This document shows, in pieces, positions 13,716 to 32,275 of a stretch of 64,000 bases of DNA. Both the position numbers and the translations under genes were made by a program. The notes beneath the pieces were generated by a model that did not search any database, was not told the DNA's origin, and saw only the letters and a program-made list of their open reading frames with translations. Each line of letters opens with the position of its first letter. The first letter of the stretch is position 1. The stretch spans positions 192,334 through 256,333 of the forward strand of contig DRFQ01000009.1 of NCBI GenBank assembly GCA_011050465.1, in the 5' to 3' direction. The DNA is from Candidatus Nealsonbacteria bacterium. Its GTDB lineage: Bacteria > Patescibacteriota > Minisyncoccia > Minisyncoccales > RBG-13-36-15.

Positions 13716-13930
13716 CTTACCAAAAAAACCGCCTTCTTGCCCACCTAAATTCGCCGCAGAGGCGAACTTGGGCGGGCTTAGCGATTTTTTAGCTTAGCTT
13801 GGCGGTGGAACGTAATTCGAGCTTGATCTTGGGTAACTTACCCAAACGACAAAGCCCACTGAATCGCTTCACGTTCCTTTTGCGTTAAGCAAAAGTTCTA
13901 AGCGAAATCGAGAGAGTCCACTTTAGCCAC

Positions 13931-14366: not shown

Positions 14367-14498
14367 ATTTTACTATTTTTTCCCCACCCTGCTACTCACT
14401 ATTTTTTAAATCAAAACAGCCCAGCGATATGATTTCCCATATTATCTTGCTTCTCTTTTAAATATAAAACTATCAAATCAATACTTCAATCAAAACTT

Positions 14499-14765: not shown

Positions 14766-14997
14766 ATTTTCCGAGATTAAATTATTAAATATAAATACGA
14801 CCTTTTTTTCTTTATTTCATTATACCTCCCTCTCTGCAAAACAAAAATCCCGAGGTCACATACCTCGGGCATGAGGCGGCTCGGTCCCCCTTCGCCAAGA
14901 TTACGGACGGATAAATCCTCCTTCGCTAAAGCTACGGAGGAACAAGTCGGGGCTATTTTAAGCTAAAACCTGTCCCGTAGTAAGCTCTGCTTTACTA

Positions 14998-15070
14998 CCG
15001 GGATGAGACAAATGGGACATTACTTGGGGGTATATTTTGGTGTCTCATTTTGGGTATACCCTACTACAAA
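14998..15070 (-). repeat. modular repeat, copy D (H2 module only)
   Basis: ccgggatgagacaaatgggacat...tatattttggtgtctcattt...taccctactac aligns with the right part of copies A-C. Confidence 0.7.
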
Positions 15071-15078
15071 AACAAAAG

Positions 15079-15102
15079 GCGGTGTGATATTTATCGCACC
15101 GC
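15079..15102 (-). terminator. intrinsic terminator (family T2)
   Basis: gcggtgtgat-attt-atcgcaccgc. On the minus strand it is followed by cttttgttttt. It lies after the stop of 15123-15335. Confidence 0.6.
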
Positions 15103-15122
15103 TTAGGTTATTGATGTCTGGG

Positions 15123-15335
15123 TTATGCAAGCCTTATTGATTTATCCTTGAAAAGAGTTACTGTGTCATCTACTGGTATATAGCCTCCTCGCATATTAGC
15201 GGTCGGCTGGAGCGGCCTAACGGGGATACATTCCTTTTCCTCAATAATATTAATTGGCCCTGGTAACCTTTGAAATACTCTCCAGTCAGGTGGCCATTTA
15301 AACCAAGCGTTTTCAGCGAGTTCTCTTGCCTTCAT
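15123..15335 (-). CDS. hypothetical protein
   Basis: 70-aa ORF, last gene of a tightly spaced trio (15579-16031, 15361-15564, 15123-15335). Confidence 0.45.
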   Translation of the reverse strand: MKARELAENAWFKWPPDWRVFQRLPGPINIIEEKECIPVRPLQPTANMRGGYIPVDDTVTLFKDKSIRLA

Positions 15336-15360
15336 TCTTTCACCCTTTCTTCTTGGAAAT

Positions 15361-15564
15361 CTACTCGGTATCTTCTAATTTCCATTTAGTTTCACCACCT
15401 CGTCTTTCAAGGCAGTAAACTTGGCAGAGAGCTCCTAATGATTGGGCGACTCCATTAACGTGTAGCCCTGTCCTTTTTGCAATTTGTCTTGTTGTGGCTG
15501 TTCCGCCTAATTCTTTTAGAGCTGCTAATATCTCTTTTTGGCGTTTTTTGAGAGATGCCATCAT
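15361..15564 (-). CDS. small winged-helix DNA-binding protein
   Basis: KEILAALKELGGTATTRQIAKRTGLHVNGVAQSLGAL...RRGGETKWKL reads as an HTH plus a wing. SD aaggagg. Confidence 0.6.
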   Translation of the reverse strand: MMASLKKRQKEILAALKELGGTATTRQIAKRTGLHVNGVAQSLGALCQVYCLERRGGETKWKLEDTE

Positions 15565-15578
15565 TCTTCCTCCTTCTT

Positions 15579-16031
15579 TTAATTCTCTGGGAAATGGAAT
15601 TGTGATAAGTCTGGACTCCAGTAAGAAATAATTAACACGGGGTGATTATTCCCGATAGAATTCAACACTTCCCTGGTTTCGTTTTCCCATCTGGAATCGC
15701 TTGGTTCTAAATCCTCTGAATCAAGACAGGTCGTAGCTTTATCTTTACTTAAAAAAAGAGCAATTATCGGAGTGGTCTTTCCTCCATAAAACGCAATATT
15801 TACCTCTTCTGGTTTTTGGGGTGACCTTTCAATTCCTCTTGGATGATCTTCATCATATAGGATAATTCCACAAGGAGTAATGCCCACATATCTACCATTC
15901 TTAAGTCTTTGTCCGACAGAAATCTTACTTTCCCCTCTTAATACGATTTTCTCAATGATAGGGATACCTTCTTCATCTTTTTCGTCTTTCACCAAATAGA
16001 CAGATGTAGTTGTTACTGCAAAGAACTCCAT
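15579..16031 (-). CDS. hypothetical protein
   Basis: 150-aa ORF with SD aaggaggg 5 nt upstream of the ATG. No recognisable family. Confidence 0.55.
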   Translation of the reverse strand: MEFFAVTTTSVYLVKDEKDEEGIPIIEKIVLRGESKISVGQRLKNGRYVGITPCGIILYDEDHPRGIERSPQKPEEVNIAFYGGKTTPIIALFLSKDKATTCLDSEDLEPSDSRWENETREVLNSIGNNHPVLIISYWSPDLSQFHFPEN

Positions 16032-16107
16032 TTTTACCCTCCTTTTTTGTACACTAGGACTATCTTTAGTTTAATCAGATTTGATAAAAAATCAACCCTT
16101 ATCAAAA

Positions 16108-16127
16108 AAACCGCCTTCTTGGCGATT
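16108..16127 (-). terminator. hairpin of family T1
   Basis: aaaccgccttcttggcgattt with a T-run on the minus strand, downstream of 16221-16529. Confidence 0.5.
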
Positions 16128-16220
16128 TTTAATACTAGGGTCATCTAGCGGATGAGATTAGAACCTGTTTAGTAGGTTAAAAACAAAAAAGCCCCGAAGG
16201 GCTTAACGGTTGTTTCTTTT

Positions 16221-16529
16221 TTATTCTTTTATTGGTGCGAGGATGGCATTAAGAACATTGCCTGGAAAATGGCAGTTCGGACAATCGTGGGGGATAATAT
16301 TGCTTGAAAAGCAACCCTCTCTACGGCTTGCAGTAAATACAAACTGGCAATAAGGGCATTGCCTCTGTAAGATACTTAAGGCTACACCGCCAGGATGATA
16401 TTCGCCGCCAGTATAAGCATCAACTGCTGCGCTTTCGTTTAGAATGGTAAAATCTTTTTTCAACAAATCGTTCAATTCTGCTCTGTTTTTCGGCAGTTCG
16501 GGTATCGCAGGTTTCACGCTATCCAGCAT
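16221..16529 (-). CDS. hypothetical protein with C-terminal zinc-ribbon-like CxxC pairs
   Basis: CPYCQF ... CPNCHF motifs. SD gggaggtg upstream of the ATG. Confidence 0.55.
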   Translation of the reverse strand: MLDSVKPAIPELPKNRAELNDLLKKDFTILNESAAVDAYTGGEYHPGGVALSILQRQCPYCQFVFTASRREGCFSSNIIPHDCPNCHFPGNVLNAILAPIKE

Positions 16530-16648
16530 TTATGCACCTCCCTTAATGACTAAATGAACTAAGTTAATTTTATATAAATTAATTTATTTGTCAAGTAAAA
16601 AAGCTCCAAAAAGGGCTAAAAAACAAATATTTATTTAGAAACAAAAAG

Positions 16649-16670
16649 GCCTCTGGCTAGTGCCTGAGGC
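16649..16670 (-). terminator. intrinsic terminator (family T3)
   Basis: gcctctggc-tagt-gcctgaggc (one mismatch). The minus strand continues cctttttgtttctaaa. A related copy lies at 23003-23026. Confidence 0.5.
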
Positions 16671-16690
16671 TGAAAAAAGATAATGAAGGT

Positions 16691-16933
16691 TTATTTTAGA
16701 TACGAGAGTATTTGAATGGCAGTGATACCAAACGCTATCATCCCAAAAGAAAATGTTATATCTTGTCTTCGAGTTTCTATCCAGCAGATAATCACTACTA
16801 TATATAAGATTCCTATTAAAGCGAAATTCGAAAAATCAAGATTGAGGGCAAGATTAGCTGTTGCCAAGATAATTGTCAAAAGAAAGAGTATAAATGCAAT
16901 AAACGGAAACGGCTTTCTTCTTTCTCGTATCAT
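16691..16933 (-). CDS. small three-TM membrane protein
   Basis: The start is moved to the ATG at 16933 (MIRERRKPF) because the track's TTG start lies inside the SD ggaggtgg. Confidence 0.5.
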   Translation of the reverse strand: MIRERRKPFPFIAFILFLLTIILATANLALNLDFSNFALIGILYIVVIICWIETRRQDITFSFGMIAFGITAIQILSYLK

Positions 16934-17110
16934 TTCCACCTCCAAGTTGGGAAAGGGCTATATTAGAGGATGAGGTTGATTGGCAAATAGATAATTGGGG
17001 GTGTGGCCCTCCTTTCTTTCACCTCCCAACCCCATCCGTAGTTAATTTAACTTAGATTAGAATTGTTGTCAAAACAAAAACCCCTACTACTAAGTAGGGT
17101 GTTATACTTT

Positions 17111-17315
17111 GCTGGCATCCTCGGTCTAGAACCCACAATTTAAGAGGAAATTCGGAGGTTTGAGGCGTGTCTCATTGACGCGTCTCGGTCAGGGTGTCCC
17201 GCCCTCTAAGCAAATAGATAAACATACAGCATAGAGGGCCGGGATGAGACAAATGAGACACTATTTAAGGGTATATTTTGGTGTCTCATTTCGGGCGTTC
17301 TATACCCTGCTACTT
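17111..17315 (-). repeat. modular repeat, copy A (full: L + H1 + H2 modules)
   Basis: ctggcatcctcggtctagaacc...gtgtctcattgacgcgtctcggtc, then hairpin cccgccctcta...tagagggccggg (17198-17243), then aaatgagacac-n19-gtgtctcattt (17251-17291). Confidence 0.8.
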
Positions 17316-17327
17316 AATATTTCTTAA

Positions 17328-17348
17328 AAATCGCCTTCTTGGCGATTT
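17328..17348 (-). terminator. hairpin of family T1 (perfect 8-bp stem)
   Basis: aaatcgcc-ttctt-ggcgattt. Confidence 0.5.
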
Positions 17349-17656
17349 CTTTTCATAACTGGGAGTCGTGGTACAGAACTAGCCGGTTCGTACCTACACC
17401 GTATCATATGGTACTGGGGTGGACGATTTTCCTTGTCCGTCCGAAGTCCCGCAAGGCGGGACGAAGAAGGAGAACAACAAATTGGGTGGAACTTATCCTC
17501 TATCCTCAATTAACTTTATTACAATCTCAAGAATTATTATCCCCTACCTAATATTTTTGGTAAATCCTTCAATTTAACCGTGATGCTTCACGAAATGTGA
17601 AATCGTGCTCAAGAATTTCTGTCAAAGAACTCTTCGATTCCCCCTGAGGAAAACCA

Positions 17657-18256
17657 TTAGAATGCTCTTTTACACTTTGGGCATACAAAATGTGCTACAA
17701 ACCAATGGCCATTAGTGCGCGTATAGTCAGGAATCAGCTCTAAAGCCATTTTTGTTTTACAATGAGAACATCGAAACCCTTTTGAAAAATCAATATCCTG
17801 TTGTAATTTTGCCGCATCCGCTCTACCTTCTTTTACCTCAAGCTTGTAAGAATTAATATTTTTTGTAATATCCACTTTTGTTAATAACGCATGGATCTTG
17901 CTTAATATTTCTCGCGGTGAATAAAAGCCCTTTACCGTATAATCGTTTGCCCCTAATTCGAGACCTTTTTGAATATTTTTTTGTCCTCCCAATACTGAAA
18001 AAATAATAACAGGGATATCCTTTATTGCTGCGTCAGCACGAATATTTTTTAAGACTTCAAATCCATGCAGTTTCGGCAAAATCAAATCCAATAAAACCAG
18101 GTCTGGTCTTTTTGATTTTACTAACTGCCATCCACTCTCCCCATCTTCAGCTTCTAAAACCTCGTACCCATCATTTTCAAGAACGTCTCGATAAATACGC
18201 CGGAATCCTGCTTCGTCTTCAATAATTAAAATGGTCCCCTTGTCCTTTTTATTCAT
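17657..18256 (-). CDS. response regulator: receiver domain fused to a C-terminal zinc ribbon
   Basis: ILIIEDE...DLVLLDLILPKLHG...ANDYTVKG gives the receiver D/D/K pattern. The C-terminus has CSHCKTK...CPKCKRAF. Confidence 0.8.
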   Translation of the reverse strand: MNKKDKGTILIIEDEAGFRRIYRDVLENDGYEVLEAEDGESGWQLVKSKRPDLVLLDLILPKLHGFEVLKNIRADAAIKDIPVIIFSVLGGQKNIQKGLELGANDYTVKGFYSPREILSKIHALLTKVDITKNINSYKLEVKEGRADAAKLQQDIDFSKGFRCSHCKTKMALELIPDYTRTNGHWFVAHFVCPKCKRAF

Positions 18257-18290
18257 ATGTTTCTTTATGCATAACTTTGCAATTCAGTTA

Positions 18291-18674
18291 TCAAGTGTTT
18301 ATTAAATTTCTTAACCTCTCAACCAATTCTCGTGGCGTTGTTTTATCTTTAACTATGTACTCTTTGGCGCCAGCGTTTAGAGCCTCTTTAATGTCTAATT
18401 CTTGCCCTAATGCGCTCAAAATAATAACTTGTAAAGTATCTAGCTTATTGTTGGCTCTTATTTTTTTTAAAACCTCGACTCCAGTCATGTCAGGCATCAC
18501 CACATCAAGCAGAACAAAATCATAGTCTCCAGAATTAACTTTTTCCAAACCGTCTCTCCCATTCTCCGCTTCATCAACTATAAAGCCATCTGCCAAAAGT
18601 CTCTCCTTATACATCTTTCTTATAAAAGAATCGTCGTCAATAAGGAGTATTCTTTTCTTTATTTTTTTAATCAT
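18291..18674 (-). CDS. single-domain response regulator (CheY-like)
   Basis: ILLIDDD, FVLLDVVMPDMTG and AKEYIVKD. It overlaps the kinase stop by 4 nt (ATGA). Confidence 0.85.
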   Translation of the reverse strand: MIKKIKKRILLIDDDSFIRKMYKERLLADGFIVDEAENGRDGLEKVNSGDYDFVLLDVVMPDMTGVEVLKKIRANNKLDTLQVIILSALGQELDIKEALNAGAKEYIVKDKTTPRELVERLRNLINT

Positions 18675-20776
18675 TTTTTCTTGAAATAAATATAAAATGT
18701 AGTTCCTTCCCCAGGCTTTGTATCAAAGTTTATTTTTCCACCCTGAAGATCGATGAACTGTTTTGCAAGGTAGAGTCCTAAACCCGCACCGGCAGCTTTC
18801 ACTTTCCCGCCTAAAACCTTCTCTTTGGCAAAGAGCGTTTTTTGATTCTCTGGTGTTATACCCTCACCTTCATCCTGAACTGACATCACAACATCTTTTC
18901 GATCCTTATGCAAGCTTATTGTAACAGAGCTGGACGGCTTAGTAAATCCAATCGCATTATGTATTATATTCCTAATAATCTCTACTGATTTGTCAAAATC
19001 TGCCAAAATATAAAAATTTTCCTCGGGATACTCTTTTTTAATTGTAACGCCTTTTTCTTTCGCCATTTTCATAAGAGGAGACAAAGCAATCTCAAGTATT
19101 TTCCTGATTTGTACATTTTTTATATCAGCTGTCAGCATTCCTCGTTCAAGGCGCGAGACATTAAGAAGATCATCAATAAGTTTTGAGTTTCTGTCAGCAA
19201 TAGCAAACATATCGTTTAAATACTCTTTTTGCTTTTTGTTCAAAGGACCAGTAAGACCACTAAGCATATTATCAATAAACCCTTTTATCTGCGCAGAAGG
19301 AGTTTTTAGTTGATGGGAAGCCAATGAAACAAACTCAGTTTTGGCGCGATCAATTTCTTTTTCCTTGGTAATATCCCTCTCAATGCCGACAAAAAACATT
19401 ACATTGTTTTCTTGATCAAGCACCGGAGCAATATGCGTTTCAGCATCATATATCTCTCCATTTTTTCTTTTATTACTAAGCTGATCGATAAAATGCTCCT
19501 TTTTAACCTTAAGAGTATTCCACATTTTCTTATAAAATTCCGGCTTCATCCGCTTCCCCCACAAAGACGGCCTTTGACCAATCATTTCTTTCTTTGAATA
19601 ACCAGTTATTTTCTCAGCTGCCTTGTTAGCATATAAAATAAAACCGTCGATATCGGTGATAATAATATGGTCGGAAGCATGTTCTACGGCCAGCTGAAAT
19701 TTCTTCAAATCTTTAGTAAGGCGATCAGCAATCCTTTCAGCTCGTACTTGTGTTCGGGTAAAAGAATACAAAACAAAGAACAACAAGACGCTGAAAGAAA
19801 CTCCTCCTACGGCAACCGCAAGCGGTGTATATTTTTCAGTGCCAATCAAAGTGGCAAAGCTCGGAAGGTCATGAAAAGAAAGCTTCCAATCCCTGCCCCC
19901 GACATTAATTATTCGCTCCGCATTAAATTCCGGCACAACCTTATGTTCAAAATCTTTACGAACAAAAAGTATCGACCCTGATTCATCCACCGCTTCAACG
20001 TGCAAGTTTTGGGATTCTGGAAATACGCTCAAAAGCGATTCAAAAAAATCACTAGCCCGAAACACAGCAAGCACAAAACCATTAAGCGCTTCTCTCCTTT
20101 CTTGGACTGTTTTTATAGATATGCCCTCTTCATACAATGGAAGGAATATAAGAAATCCTGCCTGCTCTTCTTTTTCCTGCACTAATCGGATAGGCGCTGT
20201 AGTAACAGGAGTATTTGTGTCTCTCGCTTCTTCAAGAGCCATTTTCCTCGCTGGATTTGAAAAAAGATCAAAACCAAAAGCCTCCTCGTTTCCCTTGAAA
20301 GGCTCAATGTATGTAACTACAAAGTACTCTTCGCGCTCTCCTTCAGGATAAATGATAAAATCAGGATAGCCTTCGGATATCATACCTTCTATATCATCCC
20401 GCACATCTTGCATGAAGGTCTCTTTATCTTCTAGGGGCACTCGAGCGATAAATTCAAGCGCCTGGATTCCCGGGAATTTTTCCTCAATCGACAAAGAGTT
20501 TACGTAGGCACGAAAATCATTGCGGTCAACTTTCTGGCTTGCTGCAAAAAGACCGCGCATGCCATACAGTATATTTATATATTTATCAATACTTTCTTGA
20601 ATATGGATATGGGTCTCTGTAACTATCGCAATAAATTTCTCCTCCTTTTCCAGATTCAAAATTTCTTTTGTTTTATACCAGGCAAAACCAGTCAATATGA
20701 AGAAAATCATAAAAAGCAGCAACGGAAGAAATAGTTTTTTCAAACTGATTTTAAATTGTGGAGTTTTCTTCATCAT
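18671..20776 (-). CDS. sensor histidine kinase with extracytoplasmic CHASE domain, PAS, HisKA and HATPase_c
   Basis: N-terminal TM helix. CHASE-like block (YFVVTYIEPFKGNEEAFGFDLFSNPARKMALEEARDTNTPVTTAPIRLVQ), then a second TM helix and a PAS domain (IIITDIDGFILYANKAAEKITGYSKKEMIG). H-box EFVSLASHQLKTP and G-box GAGLGLYLAK. Confidence 0.9.
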   Translation of the reverse strand: MMKKTPQFKISLKKLFLPLLLFMIFFILTGFAWYKTKEILNLEKEEKFIAIVTETHIHIQESIDKYINILYGMRGLFAASQKVDRNDFRAYVNSLSIEEKFPGIQALEFIARVPLEDKETFMQDVRDDIEGMISEGYPDFIIYPEGEREEYFVVTYIEPFKGNEEAFGFDLFSNPARKMALEEARDTNTPVTTAPIRLVQEKEEQAGFLIFLPLYEEGISIKTVQERREALNGFVLAVFRASDFFESLLSVFPESQNLHVEAVDESGSILFVRKDFEHKVVPEFNAERIINVGGRDWKLSFHDLPSFATLIGTEKYTPLAVAVGGVSFSVLLFFVLYSFTRTQVRAERIADRLTKDLKKFQLAVEHASDHIIITDIDGFILYANKAAEKITGYSKKEMIGQRPSLWGKRMKPEFYKKMWNTLKVKKEHFIDQLSNKRKNGEIYDAETHIAPVLDQENNVMFFVGIERDITKEKEIDRAKTEFVSLASHQLKTPSAQIKGFIDNMLSGLTGPLNKKQKEYLNDMFAIADRNSKLIDDLLNVSRLERGMLTADIKNVQIRKILEIALSPLMKMAKEKGVTIKKEYPEENFYILADFDKSVEIIRNIIHNAIGFTKPSSSVTISLHKDRKDVVMSVQDEGEGITPENQKTLFAKEKVLGGKVKAAGAGLGLYLAKQFIDLQGGKINFDTKPGEGTTFYIYFKKK

Positions 20777-20965
20777 TCCAATTGTTTTTCTGAATCTTCA
20801 AAAATATTGATAAAAGTGTGGCTTATAGTAATTTTATTATACCACTGCCTAGGAATTTTGTTGATCCGCTGCTACCTATATTCAACCCCGAAATGCAACA
20901 CTTGAGGATTGAATTCATGGATATTAAAAAAATCGCCTTTTAGACGATTTTAAAATTCGTAAATA

Positions 20966-21079
20966 ACGCGTCTCGGTCGGGGTGTCCCGCCCTCTAAGCA
21001 AATAGATAAACATACAGCATAGAGGACCGGGATGAGACAAATGGGACACTATTTAAGGGTATATTTTGGTGTCTCATTT
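20966..21079 (-). repeat. modular repeat, copy B (H1 + H2)
   Basis: acgcgtctcggtcggggtgtcccgccctctaagcaaatagataaacatacagcatagaggaccgggatgagacaaatgggacac...gtgtctcattt. Near-identical to copies A and C. Confidence 0.8.
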
Positions 21080-21141
21080 TTAGCTTATCCTACTGATGCC
21101 TGAAGGGATATTTCGCTATTTCAGAAATTTGTAGCCAACTA

Positions 21142-22455
21142 TCAACATTTCTGTATAAATTCTTTTTGTAGTCTCCTTTTCCTAAAAATACTCAATGTTT
21201 TAATATGTTGCTGTGCTTCTTCTGATTGTCGAATCAAATTTATTTCTAGATCAATGACCTTTGGGTTTACCTCTAGCGCTGTTTCATTAAAACCTATAAG
21301 TTTTAGACTATCTAATGTTTTTACTCTTGATAGAGCGACATATCCCATTCCTCTTTCGAATGCTTTACTAAGATCAATTTCGGCAGCATCTAGGGTCATC
21401 CCTTGGCTTTTATGAACGGTAATCGCCCAGGCAAGCCGAAGAGGTATTTGACTAATTTCAGCTTTTACCACATCGTCCTCTTTGATTGTCCAACTCGCAT
21501 GGGTAGCGATGATTTTTTTACCGGAAAATATTTTCACTATAGGATATTCATTATTATCAAACCCAACTACCTTGCCAAGTGTGCCGTTAACATACCCTTT
21601 GTCAACATTATTTTTCAAAAACATAACCTTAGCGCCTTTCTTAAGCGTTAGTTCCTCAGACGCCAAACAGTTTCTTTTCAATAACTCTACAAGTTTAGGC
21701 TCTCCTTTCAAATGCATATCATATACAAACTCTTTTCCTTCTATTTTATCTAACTGAAGATGATTTATGGCATCAACGTCTATATTATGAGTATATAGCT
21801 TGGTCGGTTTAATGACAGATGATAGTTCTTTGTTTTCTCTACCCGACAATAACTGAAATGATTCATCTCTTATTTTATTGTTCCTTATGTCAAATAGTAT
21901 TTTTGATAGTCTTGGATCTACATGTCGGTGCTGTTCTTGTAGATAACAGACTTTCATGTCCATATTTCGCCACACCTCGGACTCTGTAACAAATTTTGCC
22001 CCATCACCTCCGCCTTTCTGCACAGGGGGTAATTGAAAAAAATCCCCCGAACAGATTATTTGCATGTTTCCGAATGGTGTCAAATTATTTTTAAATGCCT
22101 GACATATATTATTTATAAGATCAAACTGGAAAGAATGAAGCATAGATATTTCATCAATAATAATAATATTAGTATTCCGGAATCTCTTTTGCAAATAGCT
22201 CCTCTTCAATAAATTTCGTATATTGCTGTCTGTTAGTTTTTCTTTAATGCCTAGCCCAGACCATGAATGAATGGTAACCCCATCCATATGTGTTGCGGCT
22301 ATTCCAGTTGATGCTGTTACAGCTACCTTTACTTTATTTTTTTTAAGATACGAAATATATTTGTTCAATAAAAAAGTCTTGCCGCTTCCAGCCTGACCCG
22401 TTAGATAAACATTATACCCTAATTTTAATATATCTAATGCTTCTTTTTGTGTCAT
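21142..22455 (-). CDS. PIF1/RecD-family (SF1B) DNA helicase
   Basis: Walker A GQAGSGKTF, Walker B IIIDEISML, GDFFQLPPV, and the C-terminal WAITVHKSQGMTLD. Confidence 0.85.
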   Translation of the reverse strand: MTQKEALDILKLGYNVYLTGQAGSGKTFLLNKYISYLKKNKVKVAVTASTGIAATHMDGVTIHSWSGLGIKEKLTDSNIRNLLKRSYLQKRFRNTNIIIIDEISMLHSFQFDLINNICQAFKNNLTPFGNMQIICSGDFFQLPPVQKGGGDGAKFVTESEVWRNMDMKVCYLQEQHRHVDPRLSKILFDIRNNKIRDESFQLLSGRENKELSSVIKPTKLYTHNIDVDAINHLQLDKIEGKEFVYDMHLKGEPKLVELLKRNCLASEELTLKKGAKVMFLKNNVDKGYVNGTLGKVVGFDNNEYPIVKIFSGKKIIATHASWTIKEDDVVKAEISQIPLRLAWAITVHKSQGMTLDAAEIDLSKAFERGMGYVALSRVKTLDSLKLIGFNETALEVNPKVIDLEINLIRQSEEAQQHIKTLSIFRKRRLQKEFIQKC

Positions 22456-22506
22456 ATTTTATAATTTTACTCTACCAAAAAATCACCCTCCCTTAAAGGT
22501 GAAGAA

Positions 22507-22620
22507 CGACGTCTCGGTCGGGGTGTCCCGCCCTCTAAGCAAATAGATAAACATACAGCATAGAGGGCCGGGATGAGACGAATGAGACACTATTTAAGGG
22601 TATATTCTGGTGTCTCATTT
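22507..22620 (-). repeat. modular repeat, copy C (H1 + H2)
   Basis: cgacgtctcggtcggggtgtcccgccctctaagc...catagagggccgggatgagacgaatgagacac...gtgtctcattt. Confidence 0.8.
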
Positions 22621-22721
22621 CTAGGGAATTATTGGCTGTTTAAAAAGAAAAGAGCCACCGTAGTTGAAGAGTGTTTGTGCTCTTTTCATCGGGTGGCTTG
22701 GGCCGAAGCCCTTAATGATGG

Positions 22722-22934
22722 CTACGATTTAGTGGACTCCTGAGACAGTCCCAAGTAGAGACTGATTGGCCAGACAGCGGCGCATATCGCTCCTGCCACG
22801 GCAAGGATAATCCAGTGCCATCTCGAAGGTGTTGAACCATCCTCTAATTTCAGCCCTACGGCCGAAATGTACCCCATGGCAACGGAGAAGTATATGGCCG
22901 CGATAACCGCGTAGCCTAAAATGAGCCAATGCAT
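22722..22934 (-). CDS. small two-TM membrane protein
   Basis: SD aaggaggg 8 nt upstream of the ATG. Hydrophobic helices. By eye the patch is GC-rich. Preferred over the overlapping 85-aa ORF in another frame. Confidence 0.5.
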   Translation of the reverse strand: MHWLILGYAVIAAIYFSVAMGYISAVGLKLEDGSTPSRWHWIILAVAGAICAAVWPISLYLGLSQESTKS

Positions 22935-23002
22935 TATGCTGCCCTCCTTTTACCTTTATTATACACCCACATTTCCGTTTTGTCAAGCCCGCAAAACAAA
23001 AG

Positions 23003-23026
23003 AGCCTCTAGCTGGTGCCTGAGGCT
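23003..23026 (-). terminator. intrinsic terminator (family T3)
   Basis: agcctctagc-tggt-gcctgaggct. The minus strand continues cttttgttttg. It lies after the stop of 23053-23298. Confidence 0.5.
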
Positions 23027-23052
23027 ATGAATGATAAAGAACTATATCAAAA

Positions 23053-23298
23053 TTAACTTTCTTTCTCTTTTTCAAGAAGAACACGAAGATATATTGTCAT
23101 TCGCCACAGAGAGAACAAAGTCATAAAAGATGATATCGCAAGAATCCCATAAGAGGCAGTAAGGTTTCTTGTTTCCGTTGTGCCAGTTACCATCAAAATT
23201 GCCATGACAAGAAAAAACAAGAAAACGGCCGCCAAGATAACATATATCCTTATATAGAATTTCGCTCTTTCTTTCGAGCTATCGACTATCTCCGTCAT
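23053..23298 (-). CDS. small two-TM membrane protein
   Basis: The start is moved to the ATG at 23298 (MTEIVDSS) because the track's GTG start lies inside the SD gggaggtg. Confidence 0.5.
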   Translation of the reverse strand: MTEIVDSSKERAKFYIRIYVILAAVFLFFLVMAILMVTGTTETRNLTASYGILAISSFMTLFSLWRMTIYLRVLLEKEKES

Positions 23299-23422
23299 AT
23301 TCTTCACCTCCCGAGTTGTATAAGAACTATTTGATACTTAACCCTATTACATCCTTAGTTATTCGTCAATGAAAAACCGCCTTCTCCTCCATAGGCGGAC
23401 AGGTTGGCGATTGATTTATACC

Positions 23423-23446
23423 GGGCTTGGAGTCTCACTGCTCGCT
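23423..23446. repeat. 24-nt direct repeat, copy 1 (gggcttggaRtctcactgctcgct)
   Basis: Identical to 23883-23906 except for one base. Together the two copies flank the GIY-YIG gene. Confidence 0.75.
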
Positions 23447-23492
23447 CGATTAAAATAATTGTCCTTCGATTTAACTCAGGACAACCCTGAGT

Positions 23493-23756
23493 TTACCGAA
23501 GGGTTGGTTTGCCGAACTTAATAAGATTTAATTTCTTTTCTCTTCTCCATCCCTTAATTTCAGACTCTCGATGCATAGCCTCTTTTAATGTTTCAAATTC
23601 TTCTGAATATCTTAAAACAACTGGTCTGTGAATCTTAGTGTAATGAGCTCCCCATTTCGATTCGTTATGCTGTTTTACACGTTTTTCTAAGCTATTAGTA
23701 CAACCGACATAGAAAGAATAATCGGAACATTCAAGGATGTAAACGTAAAATACCAT
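23493..23756 (-). CDS. GIY-YIG nuclease family protein (small stand-alone type)
   Basis: MVFYVYILECSDYSFYVGCTNSLEKRVKQHN...EIKGW carries the GIY/YVG motifs, the conserved R and the conserved E. The start is taken at the internal ATG; the track's 25-aa extension runs through repeat sequence. Confidence 0.85.
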   Translation of the reverse strand: MVFYVYILECSDYSFYVGCTNSLEKRVKQHNESKWGAHYTKIHRPVVLRYSEEFETLKEAMHRESEIKGWRREKKLNLIKFGKPTLR

Positions 23757-23877
23757 ACTATTTGTCACTTCGTCGTTCCTCTCTTCGAGCCTGAGGCTCT
23801 CAGAGCCGAACGGCCTCAGTGCCTTCTTCAATATTATTTATAGTGCCAAAGGCCCTGATGAATGAAGTGAAGAAGGG

Positions 23878-23906
23878 CTGCGGGGCTTGGAATCTCACTG
23901 CTCGCT
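23878..23906. repeat. copy of the tRNA-Gln 3' end (14 nt) fused to the 24-nt direct repeat, copy 2
   Basis: ctgcggggcttgga at 23878-23891 is identical to 26409-26422, the 3' end of the intact tRNA-Gln. 23883-23906 repeats 23423-23446. Confidence 0.75.
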
Positions 23907-24124
23907 TCGCTGCGCTTTAGACACCCACGGGTTCTAAGTATTACCCCAAATTCGCTTCGCTAGAATTTCGGGGACCCCAAACGTTTCTGCCTCAACGGCA
24001 GAAGCCTGTTTTCCTACACGGGGAGATACCCAATCTCCCCGACCCCCTCTGTGCGGTTCTCATCCAATCCCCTACGCATTAATTCAAACCAGTAACACCC
24101 ATAAAGGGTGTTCTGTTTTCAATA

Positions 24125-24208
24125 CTGGCATCCTCGGTCTAGAACCTGTGTTTTGAAGGGAAATTAGGGGGTTTGAGGCGTGTCTCATTGACGCGTCTCG
24201 GTCGGGGG
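24125..24208 (-). repeat. modular repeat, copy E (L module only, truncated at cgtctcggtcgggg)
   Basis: ctggcatcctcggtctagaacc...ggtttgaggcgtgtctcattgacgcgtctcggtcgggg aligns with 17113-17193 of copy A and then breaks off. Confidence 0.75.
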
Positions 24209-24239
24209 GTAATCTTTTTTTTATTAGAATTTTTCTATC

Positions 24240-25046
24240 TTACGCGAGCTCTTGTTGGATATCTTGCAACTGTTTCTTAACCTTTATGTCTTTTTCCTGC
24301 CTTTGAAGTGTCTCAATTTTCTGATCAAGTATGAGCTCTATTGATAATTTAATTGGTGCAAAATATCTCAAACATTCTTCCTCGGTCAACTCATGAACAC
24401 CTTTGCTTAAAATTGAATAAATACTTTTCATCTCCACAAGTTGACTTGGTAAAAATGCTTTAAGTGTTTCCACTTTATCCATCATCCTTTGTTGTTTAAA
24501 ATCAGCTTCAGCAACTCCGATAGAGACTGCATTTTTTGTATACGTCTCGAAAATGAGGTTTTCGAAGATCTTACGTAAATACACAAAAGACCCCGCACCA
24601 GCACCGTGTGCAACCAAACCAATTGCTTTTTTCAGATTCTTTAAGTCTTCGGTTAGAAGTACTTTGTCGTATTTCTTACCAATCTCGGAGAACTGTAAAT
24701 CCGCAAGCGACGGGTATTGCCCAACCTTAAAAATGATTTCTCTATTTTTATAAACAATGAATCTCAGAATATCTTCTGATTTTCTCTTGCAAGTGAGAGT
24801 TATTAGATAAAATCCAATGTTTACATGTTCACGGATATCACTAGCCCATATATCCCAAGTATCAATTTCATCCATATTTATATTGTATGTAGTTTCCGAA
24901 CTATTCTTGGCACTATACGCGTCTACGTCACCATTGAATGTATTTTGTTCGAGTTGCGCTAAAACCACTTCTTCATACAAAGGAGTCTCAAAATAGAAAT
25001 TATGTTTACTTATTATATTCTCTTCAGTTGTAGTTTCTTCTGCCAT
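24240..25046 (-). CDS. hypothetical protein, C-terminal half DUF4145-like (tentative)
   Basis: 268-aa ORF. AIGLVAHGAGAGSFVYLRKIFENLI...LPSQLVEMKSIYSILSKGVHELTEEE resembles the helical DUF4145 pattern seen in restriction/Abi-type proteins (from memory). The N-terminal half is unrecognised. Confidence 0.45.
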   Translation of the reverse strand: MAEETTTEENIISKHNFYFETPLYEEVVLAQLEQNTFNGDVDAYSAKNSSETTYNINMDEIDTWDIWASDIREHVNIGFYLITLTCKRKSEDILRFIVYKNREIIFKVGQYPSLADLQFSEIGKKYDKVLLTEDLKNLKKAIGLVAHGAGAGSFVYLRKIFENLIFETYTKNAVSIGVAEADFKQQRMMDKVETLKAFLPSQLVEMKSIYSILSKGVHELTEEECLRYFAPIKLSIELILDQKIETLQRQEKDIKVKKQLQDIQQELA

Positions 25047-25139
25047 ATTCTTTATAAAACAATTGTTCTATTTCATTGATGTGTTTCGGTCGGAATATTT
25101 TTAAATTAAAAAGATGTTAGTGCTTTATGAAGTATGTTT

Positions 25140-25694
25140 TTATGGTCGAACGATTAAATGACAGTAGAGTGGCCGACCACTATAAATCCTATCGCTAACT
25201 ATTTCTTCACGAAGGGCGACGACATCAGGGATTGAAGAATCTGGATCGTAGATAAAAAATACTAGATGCTCACAATGCTGATGGTGACGGTATACTTCAA
25301 TATCATCATGAAGTTCTTTCGATATTTGTTTTCCATGTACCTTATCGCGAATAAACTTTGCCTCAATAACTGTTTTGGCAGATTTTGAAAGAAAATCTTT
25401 AATAGCAAATCTGTTACCTACTTTTTCTGTTGGATTCTCATAAATCAAGTCAGTTACCCAAGGACGTAACATTAGATAGATCGCGTCTTGAACATCATTT
25501 TCCCCTTCAAGATTTAATTTTGCACCAGTAGAACGCCGAGTATTTAAATACCGGACACATTCCGTAAACTGCTCTAAAGCAGACACAATATCTATATAAG
25601 ATAATTCTGTCTTTAATTTTTCCTCGAGGTGAGGCCGGAATTCTGCTAAACTTGCGCAAATCTCCGCTTGTTGTTTTATGTTTTTATTCACCAT
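25140..25694 (-). CDS. hypothetical protein with PD-(D/E)XK nuclease-like core
   Basis: ...NDVQDAIYLML...FAIKDFLSKSAKTVIEAKFIRD...LVFFIYDP gives D-x12-E-x-K in a beta-strand context. Its ATG overlaps the upstream stop by 11 nt. Confidence 0.5.
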   Translation of the reverse strand: MVNKNIKQQAEICASLAEFRPHLEEKLKTELSYIDIVSALEQFTECVRYLNTRRSTGAKLNLEGENDVQDAIYLMLRPWVTDLIYENPTEKVGNRFAIKDFLSKSAKTVIEAKFIRDKVHGKQISKELHDDIEVYRHHQHCEHLVFFIYDPDSSIPDVVALREEIVSDRIYSGRPLYCHLIVRP

Positions 25695-26346
25695 TAATCT
25701 TATAAAGACGATTTGCGATACTCTCTATAATTGCATCGTAATCGGCCTTGCTTTTGTTTTCTGGTAAATGAATGTGTAGATCAATTCTTAAAACTGGTTC
25801 ATTTGTAGACTTACTTACACCATTATCGCCTACGGTGGGAGCGCTTGATTGTCCCGATTGACTGACACCATCAAACGTGGCGTGATCAGCTAACGCTTTA
25901 AAGGTATCAACTTGAAAGCGAATTGTCTTTTCTCCGCCACCAGAATTGATATTAAAAAAGCTTGTCAGTTCCTCAGTTGCTGCCTTCTCTGGATTCTTCA
26001 CATTCTGAAAGAGGGTCTCGTAAACGACTTTAATTCGTTCGCCAAGTACAGAAGCACCAGTCTCTTTTTTCATAAATTCCGTATAGTGAGTAGTCGGTTC
26101 ACCTGCAGCCGATAAAAGATCAAGTTTTTTAAGAACGCGTAAAATTGATTGGTCGTTTGCGTTTCTGAGCCCCCATACCTTTAGGGTCCCACCATTAATT
26201 TTGGGTGGTTTTGGTTTTCCTGGAATCATTTCAAGAAATTTCCGTAGCGACTTAGGAACCGTACAATAAGGAAACTGTGGATTACCATAGGTAGTTTCCT
26301 TAGTTTTTTTATCTAGTTTACTATATTTTTTTTGTTCTTTAGCCAT
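25684..26346 (-). CDS. DUF5343-like protein (tentative)
   Basis: The start is taken at MAKEQKKYS. PKSLRKFLEMIPGKPKPPKINGGTLKVWGLRNANDQSILRVLKKLDLLSAAGEPTTHYTEF matches my recollection of the DUF5343 N-terminal pattern. Confidence 0.45.
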   Translation of the reverse strand: MAKEQKKYSKLDKKTKETTYGNPQFPYCTVPKSLRKFLEMIPGKPKPPKINGGTLKVWGLRNANDQSILRVLKKLDLLSAAGEPTTHYTEFMKKETGASVLGERIKVVYETLFQNVKNPEKAATEELTSFFNINSGGGEKTIRFQVDTFKALADHATFDGVSQSGQSSAPTVGDNGVSKSTNEPVLRIDLHIHLPENKSKADYDAIIESIANRLYKINGE

Positions 26347-26408
26347 GATTATATAACGATTTAATGTTAATGACCCGTCTCGGTCGACCGATACCGAGCA
26401 CAAGACTG

Positions 26409-26479
26409 CTGCGGGGCTTGGACTCGAACCAAGATTGACGGCTTCAAAGGCCGCTGTCCTACCTTTAGACGACCCCGCA
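26409..26479 (-). tRNA. tRNA-Gln (anticodon UUG)
   Basis: Cloverleaf read by hand. Acceptor TGCGGGG/CCCCGCA with U1-A72 and discriminator G. Anticodon loop CTTTGAA. T-arm CTTGG-TTCGAGT-CCAAG. No encoded CCA. Confidence 0.85.
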
Positions 26480-26483
26480 CCGT

Positions 26484-27605
26484 TTAAACAACACTACAGG
26501 CATCAATAACTGCCAATTCCAGAGGTAATTGCGGTATTGACGAATACTTTATTTTATTTTCAGCTTCCAGAAAAAGATTTAAAATATTCTGAATATCCCG
26601 TTCTTTAAAATTTGCTATTTGAGCCTGGAGTTTCGATTTCTCCTCCGAAGACAGGCCGGAAATTATTGGATTGGACAAATCAGGATTAATCTTCAAGATC
26701 AATCCCTGCCTTAAGTAATTGATAAACTGTTTGGTGAACTCTTGAATGTCCAATCCTTGCTCTATTTTTTCCTGTAGAAACTGGAGGGCCCGGGGGGGTT
26801 GTTTCTTTGAGATGAAATCTAAAAATTGGCTGATTAAAGCAATATCAACAATACCCAAAAGCTCTTTAATGTCGTTTTTTTTAATTTCTTTTGTTTGACC
26901 AGAGAAAGTAATTAACTGATCCAGCAAACTTTCTGCGTCTCTTAAAGAACCTCCTGAATTTAAAGCAATTATTTCCAATGCTTCTTTTTCAATCTTCACG
27001 TTTTCTTTTTTAGAAATTATTTCTAATCTTTTCAATATCTCCGGCAAGGTTAATCTTCTAAAGTCAAATCTTTGACAACGAGAAAGAATCGTTGGAATCA
27101 TTTTATGGATTTCGGTTGTTGCCAGAATAAAAATAACATGACCCGGAGGTTCTTCTAATGTTTTCAAAAGAGCGTTAGCTGCATCCTTTGTAATCTGATG
27201 ACTTTCATCAATTATATATACCTTATATTTTGCTTTTGCCGGGACAAATCGTGTACTTTCTCTTAATTCTCTTATCTCATCAATTCCCCGGTGGGAGGCC
27301 GCATCAACTTCGATTAAATCAATTAATTTTCCTTGATTAATTTCTGAACAGGTTGAACATTGATTACAAGGCTCAAAGTTCCCGCCTCCATCATGGCGGG
27401 CAGGCTTCCTATTCTCGCAATTAATCGCTTTGGCAAAAAGTCTCGCCATGGTGGTCTTTCCACTGCCGCGGGGACCGGAAAATAAATAAGCATGGGATAT
27501 CATCCCAGCAGAAATAGCATTAGTTAAGGTTTGAACAATATGTTCCTGGCCAATAATGTCAGAAAAGCTTTTTGGCCTGTATTTGCGATAAAGAACCAAA
27601 CCCAT
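26484..27605 (-). CDS. dnaX: DNA polymerase III subunit gamma/tau
   Basis: LYRKYRPKSFSDIIGQEH, Walker A GPRGSGKTT, Walker B YIIDESH, SRCQRF. The start is taken at the ATG at 27605, adjacent to the upstream stop. Confidence 0.9.
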   Translation of the reverse strand: MGLVLYRKYRPKSFSDIIGQEHIVQTLTNAISAGMISHAYLFSGPRGSGKTTMARLFAKAINCENRKPARHDGGGNFEPCNQCSTCSEINQGKLIDLIEVDAASHRGIDEIRELRESTRFVPAKAKYKVYIIDESHQITKDAANALLKTLEEPPGHVIFILATTEIHKMIPTILSRCQRFDFRRLTLPEILKRLEIISKKENVKIEKEALEIIALNSGGSLRDAESLLDQLITFSGQTKEIKKNDIKELLGIVDIALISQFLDFISKKQPPRALQFLQEKIEQGLDIQEFTKQFINYLRQGLILKINPDLSNPIISGLSSEEKSKLQAQIANFKERDIQNILNLFLEAENKIKYSSIPQLPLELAVIDACSVV

Positions 27606-31997: not shown

Positions 31998-32275
31998 TTC
32001 GAGCGAGCGTAACGAGCGAGAACCCCGCCCTCTATGCTATATGTATTATGTTTATATCTTGCAAAGAAAAAGAAACAGTCATTTTTATATAGGTTATACT
32101 AATAATTTAAAAAAGAGGGTTAAACAACACCAAAGAAAAGATCAATCTCGGTTAATTTATTACGAAGCTTATCTGTCAGAAAAAATAGCAAGGATAAGAG
32201 AAAGAAGATTAAAACATTATGGAAGTGCCTGGCGAGCCCTCAGAAAGAGAATTGGTGCTTAGAGGGCGGGGTGTC
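31998..32275 (+). mobile_element. hairpin-bracketed GIY-YIG element (candidate autonomous copy)
   Basis: Inverted arms ccccgccctctatgc (32023-32037) and gcttagagggcgggg (32257-32271) enclose the ORF. The flank ttcgagcgagcgtaacgagcgagaa is shared with the ORF-less copy at 47291-47382. Confidence 0.5.
32041..32262 (+). CDS. GIY-YIG nuclease family protein
   Basis: MYYVYILQRKRNSHFYIGYTNNLKKRVKQH...RERRLK carries the GIY/YIG motifs with the conserved R and E. Confidence 0.8.
   Translation: MYYVYILQRKRNSHFYIGYTNNLKKRVKQHQRKDQSRLIYYEAYLSEKIARIRERRLKHYGSAWRALRKRIGA

Follow-up and report, generated by a model that had tools for sequence, protein, structure and literature searches.

The window analysed here, a stretch of 64 kb in full, contains five gene cassettes on the minus strand, arrayed beside a tRNA-Gln (TTG) gene (26408-26479, minus strand) that anchors the array and has dnaX directly upstream of it on the same strand. 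Cassette 1 (15123-16945) comprises five small genes, with products of 70 aa, 67 aa (HTH), 150 aa, 102 aa (zinc ribbon) and 84 aa (membrane). Cassette 2 (17657-20776) codes for a CHASE-PAS histidine kinase and two response regulators, and cassette 3 (21142-22455) for a Pif1-family helicase; both had been named as genes flanked by the repeat described below, and both were recovered as such. Cassette 4 (22722-23831) contains two small membrane-like ORFs and a 112-aa GIY-YIG protein, and cassette 5 (24240-26403), the closest to the tRNA gene, a 268-aa protein of unknown function, a DpnII/MboI-like endonuclease and a DUF5343 protein. Neither a recombinase of any kind, nor an integron integrase, nor an RNA family was found in the window.

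Repeat finding and self-BLAST identified five intergenic copies of a repeat, all co-oriented on the plus strand, and no further copies elsewhere in the 64-kb window. Three segments (17178-17291, 20966-21079 and 22507-22620) share 95-97% identity; the L modules at 17112-17197 and 24125-24210 are 86% identical, and an alignment restricted to the H2 module at 14997-15065 shows 81-87% identity. Relative to shuffled sequences, GGTGTCTCATTT occurs five times in the window against 0.34 expected, and CGTCTCGGTCGG, at no more than one mismatch, five times against 0.01 expected (17181, 20969, 22510, 24194 and 26376). The modular, co-oriented repeat of the original prediction is therefore well founded, as is its placement of a further, sixth copy of the core at 26376, beside tRNA-Gln. 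The predicted minus-strand hairpin and T-run after the full copy corresponds to an intrinsic terminator located directly after it (17082-17099, minus strand), and equivalent terminators follow other copies (14849-14869, 20929-20951 and 22483-22502).

The ancestral order of the unit is a pseudo-tRNA 3' end (t3'), the L body, a core (CTCGGTC; plus-strand consensus CTCGGTC(G/A)GG), a short linker and the H2 palindrome. The full copy (17109-17292, plus strand; profile positions 3-152, E=4e-32) consists of t3' (17111-17133), an L body that includes GTGTCTCAT at 17167-17175, the core ACGCGTCTCGGTCAGGG (17178-17195), H1 (17198-17243) and H2 (17244-17291), the latter reading ATGAGACA-A-ATGAGACAC, a 19-nt loop and GTGTCTCATTT. 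H1 is indeed a GIY-YIG-type mini-hairpin, but it is a secondary insertion into the unit rather than one of its original modules. Two plus-strand copies lack L and retain the core, H1 and H2 (20966-21082, with core 20969-20980 and H2 21032-21079; 22507-22622, with core 22510-22521 and H2 22573-22620). A fourth (24124-24211, plus strand; profile positions 4-92) has t3', the L body and the core without H2, its similarity stopping after GGTCGGGG. The copy first taken for a right module alone at 14998 is a near-full unit (14873-15053, plus strand; nhmmer 14946-15052, profile positions 82-153), the oldest of the five and degenerate, split by two small insertions. It retains an L-end remnant and core gaggcggctcggtc (14873-14886), a 59-nt insertion between gaggcggctcggtc and gtcgggg, then gtcgggg with the linker ctattttaagctaaaa (14946-14968), an inserted mini-hairpin CCCGTAGTAA..TTTACTACCGGG (14969-15002) and H2 (15003-15053). 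Identity among the window copies falls away sharply at the right-hand end of H2; the similarity formerly placed beyond 17291 is of another kind, since 17304-17328 matches 14386-14410 and not the other copies of the repeat.

H2 is an imperfect palindrome of 41-47 bp, built from the 8-mer ATGAGACA, which occurs twice in direct and once in inverted orientation. The inverted repeat that had been described as 11 bp and perfect does exist; it is imperfect in two window copies, in which the left arm reads AAATGGGACAC and produces a G.T wobble.

Copies of the module are far from confined to this locus. The family was collected with a 23-base H2 pattern, whose matches numbered at least 119 loci in metagenomes and at least 120 genomes among species representatives; among the matches listed, nearly all are from Patescibacteria, of many classes. 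The pattern fixes the H2 arms, so that estimates of conservation are biased; the L and core blocks upstream, although absent from the pattern, are also conserved among these matches. L is co-oriented with H2 in 93 of 93 L matches, and loci with multiple copies always carry them in direct orientation. About 55% of the listed copies are full, about 28% consist of linker and H2, about 6% of core and H2, and a few of L and core without H2; the truncated forms of the window are thus found again in other genomes.

The original prediction had offered a family of small RNA genes as one option; a related possibility is a structured 3' UTR, in either case with transcription confined to the interval between two terminators. 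Intrinsic terminators do bracket the element on both strands (17082-17099 and 17328-17348), folding z-scores are -6.1 (plus strand) and -4.7 (minus strand), and the A-to-G variants of the left arm would form G.U pairs on the plus strand. Stems had been proposed for both H2 and L: paralogous hairpins of the H2 type show compensating changes in their arms, with seven dinucleotide types, but neither L nor the core has compensatory pairs on either strand. RNAalifold gave -9.4 kcal/mol (plus) and -12.2 kcal/mol (minus), and beyond the H2 arms, fixed by the search pattern, compensatory pairs were absent. Rfam returned no match even at a permissive E-value, no convincing or conserved promoter was found at the module, and the inserted H1 hairpin accounts for most of the low folding energy seen in the window. 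Moreover, a direct arm copy upstream of the hairpin co-varies with its arms, which a simple hairpin would not need. An RNA gene is therefore highly improbable.

The same arm variation may be considered at the level of DNA. The 8-mer is present in three to four copies per unit, in both orientations, with extra ones in loops and downstream, and all copies within one module vary in concert (NN = AG, TT, GC, GG, GT, GA or CA). Such an arrangement, conserved in sequence while L and core show no RNA covariation, leaves room for the predicted operator arrays as far as H2 is concerned: H2 and its paralogues would be cis-regulatory DNA, either an insulator or arrays of the operator or partition type to which a small DNA-binding protein attaches. 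The modular copies would in that case travel with the cassettes as regulatory regions and would not be recombination sites. The position of H2 directly upstream of a recombinase gene in 13 of the listed loci would suit this role. On the other hand, the neighbour survey revealed no consistently adjacent candidate binding protein, and one hairpin (L226) has nested arms of different types, which is more readily explained by base pairing than by one protein. The proposal also leaves t3', the tRNA linkage and the strain-to-strain replacement of cassettes unaccounted for, and we regard it as quite unlikely. H2 may nevertheless serve as a recognition site for a protein, be it the recombinase, a regulator or an accessory factor.

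The link to tRNA genes is evident in the repeat itself. The pseudo-tRNA end t3' is in register with the 3' end of tRNA-Gln and preserves the T-loop invariants G53, T54, T55, C56, A58 and C61. Directly 3' of tRNA-Gln lies a trailer (26376-26407, plus strand) composed of a spacer and core0 CGTCTCGGTCGA, which forms a hairpin (CTCGGT..ACCGAG). Elsewhere, 13 of 67 typical copies have the core0-spacer motif in front of t3', compared to 2 of 56 control windows, and the native tRNA trailer occupies this position in L041, L021, L061 and others. The module borders had been placed at cgtctcggtcgg; this holds for secondary truncations only, and the main junction is probably the pseudo-tRNA 3' end, where L starts, or the tRNA itself.

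The order of module, island of 3-8 kb, and tRNA-Gln with dnaX is repeated in eight other loci. In seven metagenome loci tRNA-Gln is located 3-8 kb downstream on the opposite strand, with dnaX in several, and L126 and L229 have the same tRNA-Gln synteny. Strain comparison was made with one close relative, L061, whose flanks are 94.8% and 93% identical to the window. From t3' (window position 23880) to tRNA-Gln the two share nothing: in place of cassette 5, the relative contains three cassettes of other content, with one full copy and one L-less copy of the module at their borders. Homology ends at a displaced tRNA-Gln 3' fragment, GCTGCGGGGCTTGGA (exact over 15 nt; 23877-23891, plus strand). 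Cassette content thus differs between strains at module borders, as anticipated, with the break at t3' and not at cgtctcggtcgg.

Among the matches listed, the largest cluster of neighbouring proteins has the Resolvase, Recombinase and Zn_ribbon_recom composition. A large serine recombinase, the commonest neighbour, is found near the module in 30 of 239 loci, and its genes are on the strand of the element in 33 of 33 cases. In 13 loci the gene follows H2, with its start at a distance of 23-160 nt; in seven it precedes H2 and ends 29-640 nt from it. In seven copies from six recombinase loci, homology begins precisely with TGGCGGTGTACACGCG, which is a tRNA 3' end in reverse complement, and the left flanks are all different. 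Locus L013 contains module-recombinase-cargo units at intervals of 2.93 kb, adjoining tRNA-Ser. Of 80 loci with a typical, window-type L, only 2 lie within 5 kb of a serine recombinase gene, and a Pfam census of 145 neighbouring proteins showed no enriched recombinase; the recombinase link consequently rests on a related, diverged subfamily.

Where the crossover would occur is a separate matter, as the locus comparisons show homology breaks at t3', at the core, at both H2 edges and once inside H2. H2, with L and core, could be the serine-recombinase site itself (attB/attP/attL/attR), an integron-like landing pad at which circular cassettes enter and leave, generating a full copy followed by H2-only copies. 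Its size and dyad symmetry are those of a serine-integrase site, it abuts the recombinase gene on either side, and cargo genes converge on it as cassette ORFs do on attC. The sharp loss of identity at its right edge in the window, the homology break inside H2 between L044 and L106, the frequent linker-H2 copies and the arrays in which H2-only copies come after a full one (L044, L078 and L106, among the matches listed) point the same way. Yet in the recombinase subfamily homology passes through H2 and continues for about 150 nt, up to t3'; pairs that share only the right flank have the whole H2 loop in common (halves 0.80 and 0.89 identical); and arm spacing is unimodal among the family loci (19-23 nt), with no short/long dimorphism of the attB and attP type. 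Capture at H2 therefore appears doubtful.

Several known systems resemble the end module that we favour. The att sites of serine integrases of the phiC31, Bxb1 and A118 type are comparable to H2 in form and in adjoining a Resolvase-Recombinase-Zn_ribbon_recom gene. Large serine recombinases normally need sites of only 40-50 bp, whereas the module here is 150 nt; it differs further in the homology that extends past H2 to the tRNA-like end, in the extra direct arm copy and in the conserved L and core blocks, and a crossover in H2 is only a candidate. SCC composite arrays at orfX of staphylococci likewise involve serine-recombinase-driven tandem accretion at one chromosomal site, direct repeats bounding the units, and many units without recombinase genes. 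Their target is rlmH rather than a tRNA 3' end, and their integration site sequences are about 20 bp, compared to structured repeats of about 150 nt here. Integron cassette arrays also have co-oriented, structured, palindromic repeats (60-140 nt) between cassettes of one or a few genes, with repeats highly similar within an array and strain-variable cassette content. Unlike integrons, the present array has no IntI tyrosine recombinase, attI or Pc, its arms read ATGAGACA/TGTCTCAT instead of RYYYAAC/GTTRRRY, and it is tRNA-anchored, with pseudo-tRNA fragments.

The tycheposons of Prochlorococcus (bioRxiv 10.1101/2020.12.28.424599) share with this family integration at tRNA genes, flanking partial tRNA repeats, the pushing of older elements into the island by newer ones, and islands with many recombinase-less remnants and cargo or defence genes. 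They mostly carry a tyrosine recombinase, and a minority large serine recombinases (bioRxiv 10.1101/2020.12.28.424599); in the present family it is of the large serine type, the host phylum is another, a conserved module of about 150 nt with the H2 palindrome accompanies the tRNA fragment, and no replication module is evident.

The repeat is probably the conserved end module of small integrative cassettes of Patescibacteria that insert at tRNA 3' ends. Of the options originally proposed, cassette-boundary recombination sites fit best, given the family-wide, co-oriented occurrence, the recurrent truncations, the serine recombinase and tRNA linkage and the cassette difference in the close relative; the position of the junction and the origin of H1 had to be revised. 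Autonomous members have the large serine recombinase gene beside H2 and a host junction located exactly at t3'; the recombinase would make the t3' junctions. Each integration at tRNA-Gln would add a module and its cargo and displace older units from the tRNA, a stepwise process that would account for the co-oriented array. The five units of the window (cassettes 1-5), none of which retains a recombinase, would be remnants or be moved in trans. The L-less and H2-less copies may derive from secondary recombination or deletion, core to core, between CTCGGTC repeats, which are present in the core, in core0 of the tRNA trailer and in the T-stem portion of t3'. H1 would have been inserted later and copied together with its block, hence the 95-97% identity of the three copies. 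In this reading, the window is a tandem array of cassettes that lack a recombinase and accumulated by site-specific integration at tRNA-Gln, marked by a previously undescribed module of about 150 bases in bacteria of the candidate phyla radiation.

The repeat that punctuates the window between 14873 and 24211 is a true, non-random feature. Repeat search and self-BLAST recover three copies with 95-97% identity (17178-17291, 20966-21079 and 22507-22620), the L part of the module (17112-17197) is found again at 24125-24210 with 86% identity, and the palindromic H2 part recurs at 14997-15065. Two motifs are far more frequent in the window than in shuffled sequence: GGTGTCTCATTT occurs five times (0.34 expected) and CGTCTCGGTCGG likewise five times (0.01 expected), one of the latter at 26376 beside tRNA-Gln. 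As the original prediction held, the copies are all intergenic and all on one strand, and the genes from 11 to 28 kb all lie on the opposite strand. Every copy in the 64 kb belongs to this one array and none occurs elsewhere in it. The window itself is chromosomal, carrying dnaX, cysS, dnaB and recR.

The most likely role of the repeat is that of a boundary module for tRNA-anchored integrative cassettes, the window holding five recombinase-less units at tRNA-Gln; on the same reading, autonomous members of the family carry a large serine recombinase. One cassette between the window copies consists of five small genes, another encodes two response regulators and a CHASE-PAS histidine kinase, and a third a Pif1 helicase; in a fourth, a GIY-YIG protein accompanies two small membrane-like ORFs, and the fifth encodes a 268-aa protein, a DpnII/MboI-like endonuclease and a DUF5343 protein. 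In the tRNA-proximal cassette (25140-26403), the DpnII/MboI-like restriction endonuclease and the DUF5343 protein occur with no methyltransferase. Four cassette borders (13724-13746, 16106-16128, 17326-17348 and 20928-20950) bear a near-identical bidirectional terminator hairpin, AAAAA(C/T)CGCCTTCTTGGCGATTT. A second common terminator, AAACAAAA.GCCTCT.GCT.GTGCCTGAGGCT, is located at 16639-16671 and 22994-23026, in each case after an 84-aa ORF; these two ORFs are not homologous to each other. The array also includes two non-coding stretches of ~230-300 nt (17350-17650 and 23892-24123) that are GC-richer and hairpin-dense.

Copies are not confined to this one locus, an outcome considered with the original prediction. 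A pattern consisting of the H2 arms alone (ATGAGACNAATGNGACA-N16-26-TGTCTCAT) matched at least 119 loci in JGI metagenomes and at least 120 in one-genome-per-species contigs; both figures are lower bounds, from a family sample collected with the H2 arms fixed. An earlier genome scan, with a pattern containing CCGGG, gave no match because CCGGG lies in the H1 mini-hairpin, an insertion. The hosts among the matches listed are nearly all Patescibacteria (the candidate phyla radiation, CPR) and span many classes, Saccharibacteria, Paceibacterota, Uhrbacteria, Peregrinibacteria and Yanofskybacteria among them. TerS/TerL-like neighbours are limited to a subset of loci, and the view that the module is a phage attP site was rejected, since 2.9 million viral contigs yielded a single match and the phage and plasmid collections none. 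In the searchable literature the motif appears in no paper, and no paper on CPR describes such elements; as far as the tools and libraries used show, the family of ~150-nt modules with an H2 hairpin is undescribed.

The sequence upstream of H2 is conserved although it lies outside the search pattern, and we therefore regard L, core (CTCGGTC) and H2 as one ancestral unit of ~150 nt, with the family consensus tGCTG..aCCtCGGTCTaGAACC – ttttaaggggaaatt.gggg.tttttgggg(tgtctcat)tgAcgcgTCTCGGTCGGGG – c.ttttaagctaaa – ATGAGACAAATGAGACAC – loop – GTGTCTCATTTt. Profile searches of the loci listed place L and H2 on the same strand in 93 of 93 L matches, and multi-copy loci are direct arrays in every case. 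Among the matches listed, ~55% of copies start at the tRNA-like left end (t3', described below), ~28% just past the core (linker and H2) and ~6% at the core; a handful have L and core without H2. The separate modules first proposed are thus truncation forms that recur across the family and are not particular to this locus. The copy at 14998, taken originally for a right module alone, is a near-full unit with two small insertions. A MITE or REP-like dispersed repeat was rejected, the ends of the block (ACGCGTCTCGG... and ...GTGTCTCATTT) not being mutual inverted repeats.

H1 had likewise been counted as a module of the repeat and proves instead to be an insertion: in most relatives its place is taken by a 15-nt linker, and it is outside the ancestral unit. 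The inverted repeat that makes up its stem (CCCGCCCTCTA/TAGAGGGCGGG) also encloses a GIY-YIG ORF at 32023-32272 and occurs without a gene at 47316-47352. The framed ORF (73 aa, 32041-32262) lies between the arms of a 12-bp inverted repeat, CCCCGCCCTCTA / TAGAGGGCGGGG, and in three of the repeat copies the stem is empty (17198-17243, 20986-21031 and 22527-22572). A GIY-YIG ORF is found upstream of H2 in six metagenome loci, in five of them at 136-471 nt, the H1 position, and L049, one of the loci found with the H2 pattern, has the same empty hairpin there. By analogy with REP/RAYT, H1 looks like a non-autonomous derivative of a mobile GIY-YIG hairpin element. A GIY-YIG ORF or an empty hairpin at the H1 position was noted in other genomes as well (L049, L067, L068, L094, L115 and L123). 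Within the array, a 112-aa GIY-YIG gene (23493-23831) lies between 24-nt direct repeats, GGGCTTGGA(G/A)TCTCACTGCTCGCT, at 23423-23446 and 23883-23906; these are 96% identical and start with a tRNA-Gln-like T-stem fragment. A CTCGCT-rich flank also adjoins the other GIY-YIG hairpins (32000-32022 and 47353-47375).

On the minus strand the end of L reads GGTTCTAGA-CCGAG-GATGCCA-G-C, in register with the 3' end of the real tRNA-Gln, GGTTCGAGT-CCAAG-CCCCGCA-G-C, and the invariant columns in 28 diverse copies are the universal T-loop nucleotides G53, T54, T55, C56, A58 and C61. In copies with an imperfect T-stem, the mismatch is often a wobble pair on the minus strand. By sequence, L thus opens with a pseudo-tRNA 3' end (t3'), and the t3' copies at 17111 and 24125 both retain the tRNA 3'-end register and the T-loop invariants. 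An exact 15-nt fragment of the tRNA-Gln 3' end also lies inside the array (23877-23891). Furthermore, the pseudo-end is preceded in several loci (L041, L021, L061, L032 and others) by CTCGGTC and a ~22-nt spacer, which is the trailer of the window tRNA-Gln; this trailer motif accompanies 13 of 67 copies, compared with 2 of 56 control windows. Seven metagenome loci have an opposite-strand tRNA-Gln 3-8 kb downstream of the module, in several with dnaX next to it, and this synteny is also found at L126 and L229; at least eight loci besides the window have it. As in a tRNA-targeting array, the window array lies against tRNA-Gln (26408-26479), and its units are delimited by partial tRNA 3' ends in direct orientation.

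CTCGGTC occupies three places, always in direct orientation: t3' (as the T-stem), the core, and the tRNA trailer (26376-26407), where the core-like motif is termed core0. In both the window and the close relative L061, L-less copies have a foreign left flank fused to the core, and the one in L061 shows the left context of a core0 (tgggcgtctcagtc|gggg). Such copies fit an origin by deletion or recombination between core0 and core, which may have been enzymatic or through microhomology.

Comparison with L061, the one close relative compared, shows how the array differs between strains. The two share 94.8% identity at 23671-23880 and 93% at 26378-26530, with an identical tRNA-Gln, and between these anchors they have only module copies in common. 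In the window this interval comprises one 2.2-kb cassette together with a t3'-L-core copy, 245 nt and the displaced tRNA fragment. In L061 it comprises t3'-L-core-linker and three other cassettes: one with a 219-aa ORF, another with two proteins of unknown function and a DnaA-like ATPase, and another with Dam, ParB_N and PRTase-CE. One full copy with trailer and one L-less copy divide these cassettes. High-identity homology stops at the GCTG that starts t3' (23880) and restarts at the tRNA, the core0 trailer being similar at the family level only. Cassette content differs between these close strains, with breakpoints at t3' and tRNA-Gln. Addition of units at the tRNA since the divergence of the strains would be expected to produce this pattern. 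The second hairpin-dense stretch of the window (23881-24125) is missing from L061.

Clustering of ORFs within 5 kb of the 239 listed loci gave as the largest family a ~450-aa protein with Resolvase, Recombinase and Zn_ribbon_recom domains. This serine recombinase is present in 30 of the 239 loci, with all 33 genes on the strand of the element; the gene starts 23-160 nt after H2 in 13 loci and ends 29-640 nt before H2 in seven. In seven copies of a diverged recombinase subfamily, from six loci (L013, L134, L144, L194, L230 and L231), TGGCGGTGTACACGCG marks the exact start of homology; it is a tRNA 3' end (...CCGCCA) in reverse complement, and the left flanks of these copies are all different, often a terminator. 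L013 contains two module-recombinase-cargo units 2.93 kb apart, the first with HNH cargo, and a third unit that lacks the recombinase, carries Fic and adjoins tRNA-Ser. The L body and core of the subfamily are recognizably homologous to those of the window type (TTTGAGGCATGTGGGTCGGG vs TTTGAGGCGTGTC..TCTCGGTCAGG).

Pfam scans of the array-flanking ORFs and most of the larger ORFs detected no recombinase in the window; a serine recombinase lies within 5 kb in two of the 80 listed window-type loci and is lacking in the other 78, and a Pfam census of 145 neighboring proteins showed no enrichment of any recombinase. In these window-type loci the first ORF to the right of H2 is usually an opposite-strand singleton, i.e., variable cargo converging on H2. 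Other recurrent neighbors in the family are a ParB_N-methylase, TerS-like and TerL-like proteins and a reverse transcriptase. The latter (RVT_1, ~344 aa) lies on the opposite strand, just to the right of H2, and ends ~40-55 nt from it in eight loci, including L234; it is either recurrent cargo or a partner. The third commonest neighbor is a ~206-225-aa CxxC family without a Pfam match (L018, L025, L052, L151 and 17 other loci), which starts 23-40 nt after H2 in three metagenome loci.

H2 is a 41-47 bp imperfect palindrome beside the recombinase gene, within the 40-50 bp expected of large-serine-recombinase sites, and its arms are AAATGAGACAC / GTGTCTCATTT in all copies. Its 8-mer is present inverted in L and twice in direct orientation on the left side of H2, with one inverted copy on the right side; some loci have further copies in loops or downstream. 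Paralogous modules keep the same frame with another central dinucleotide (ATG-NN-ACA-A-ATG-NN-ACAC ... GTGT-N'N'-CAT): AG with a matching right arm was counted 229 times and TT 11 times, and GC, GG, GT, GA and CA also occur. For each type the two direct copies and the inverted arm change jointly; L159, L210 and L217 have several types in tandem, and in L226 the arms of two types are nested, outer pairing with outer and inner with inner. H2-type hairpins include the ATGAGACA and ATGTTACA types. In the tandem arrays of H2-like modules (L159 5970-6270, L210 2200-2640, L217 1680-1950 and L125 2600-2860), the arms differ solely in the central dinucleotide (TGTTACA, TGGCACA, TGGGACA, TGCAACA and TGAGACA); every module comprises one inverted complementary copy and two direct ones, and three loci share the order in which the types follow each other. 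The co-variation of the arms is genuine, and it fits a hairpin (in ssDNA or RNA) and specificity-variant protein sites alike.

An sRNA, which the original prediction had offered as an option, found no support, nor did a described RNA family. Rfam, at both gathering and E<=10 thresholds, returned tRNAs only from the window and three family loci, and RNAalifold of 28 diverse full copies gave -9.4 kcal/mol on the plus strand and -12.2 on the minus strand with no compensatory pair on either, the H2 arms being fixed by sampling. Covariation across full copies was thus not observed, and it is the paralogous H2 modules that co-vary. A hairpin between L and core (GAGGCGTGTC..GACGCGTCTC) was rejected as it is lost in relatives, e.g., L029. 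H2 is not an ordinary intrinsic terminator, given its loop of 15-21 nt (3-8 nt is usual in such terminators) and its absence from the calls of the terminator scan; canonical terminators, distinct from H2, occur on the flanks of every window copy. A promoter was likewise rejected (36 hits in the sigma-70 scan vs 31 in shuffles, with no hexamer pair conserved in H2).

Homology breaks at t3', close to the core, at the left or the right edge of H2 and, in one pair, inside H2; pairs with only the right flank in common share the whole loop, and homology in the recombinase subfamily passes H2 to reach t3'. Association of the loop halves with the flanks is confounded on the left side by the family-wide conservation of the core. 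These breakpoint analyses do not fix the crossover in H2, and arm spacing as an attB/attP dimorphism was rejected, the spacing being unimodal. We consider it rather unlikely that H2-type hairpins, whose ATG-NN-ACA arms have a complementary partner and which exist in at least seven NN types, some of them arrayed side by side, form the recognition code of a CPR-wide, integron-analogous cassette-capture system run by large serine recombinases, in which the recombinase or a partner would read the folded or palindromic site, the central dinucleotide would set specificity and the tRNA-like end would be the chromosomal anchor.

The resemblance of the array to an integron is superficial. An integron should have IntI, attI and Pc, but neither Phage_integrase nor IntI was found in the window ORFs scanned or enriched among the 145 neighbors, and the module lacks the GTTRRRY boundary of attC core sites (RYYYAAC ... 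GTTRRRY); an integron reading was rejected on both counts. The array works more like the accretion of SCC-type elements and, judging from the published description alone, of the tycheposons of Prochlorococcus.

Patescibacteria have tiny genomes, and little is known of how they gain accessory genes. Across many CPR lineages, the module shows at the sequence level where variable cassettes are bordered; the contents of these cassettes include restriction and methylase genes, Fic, HNH, a reverse transcriptase, a sensor kinase and a helicase. Flexible islands in CPR genomes can be located with it as a simple marker, and it brings to light a palindrome family that is highly conserved and unannotated and that varies in its specificity dinucleotide. 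Its copies are also candidate attachment sites for a large serine recombinase family, and possible tools for organisms without genetics. If the cassettes are mobile in trans, tycheposon-like or integron-like gene exchange would extend to a third major lineage.
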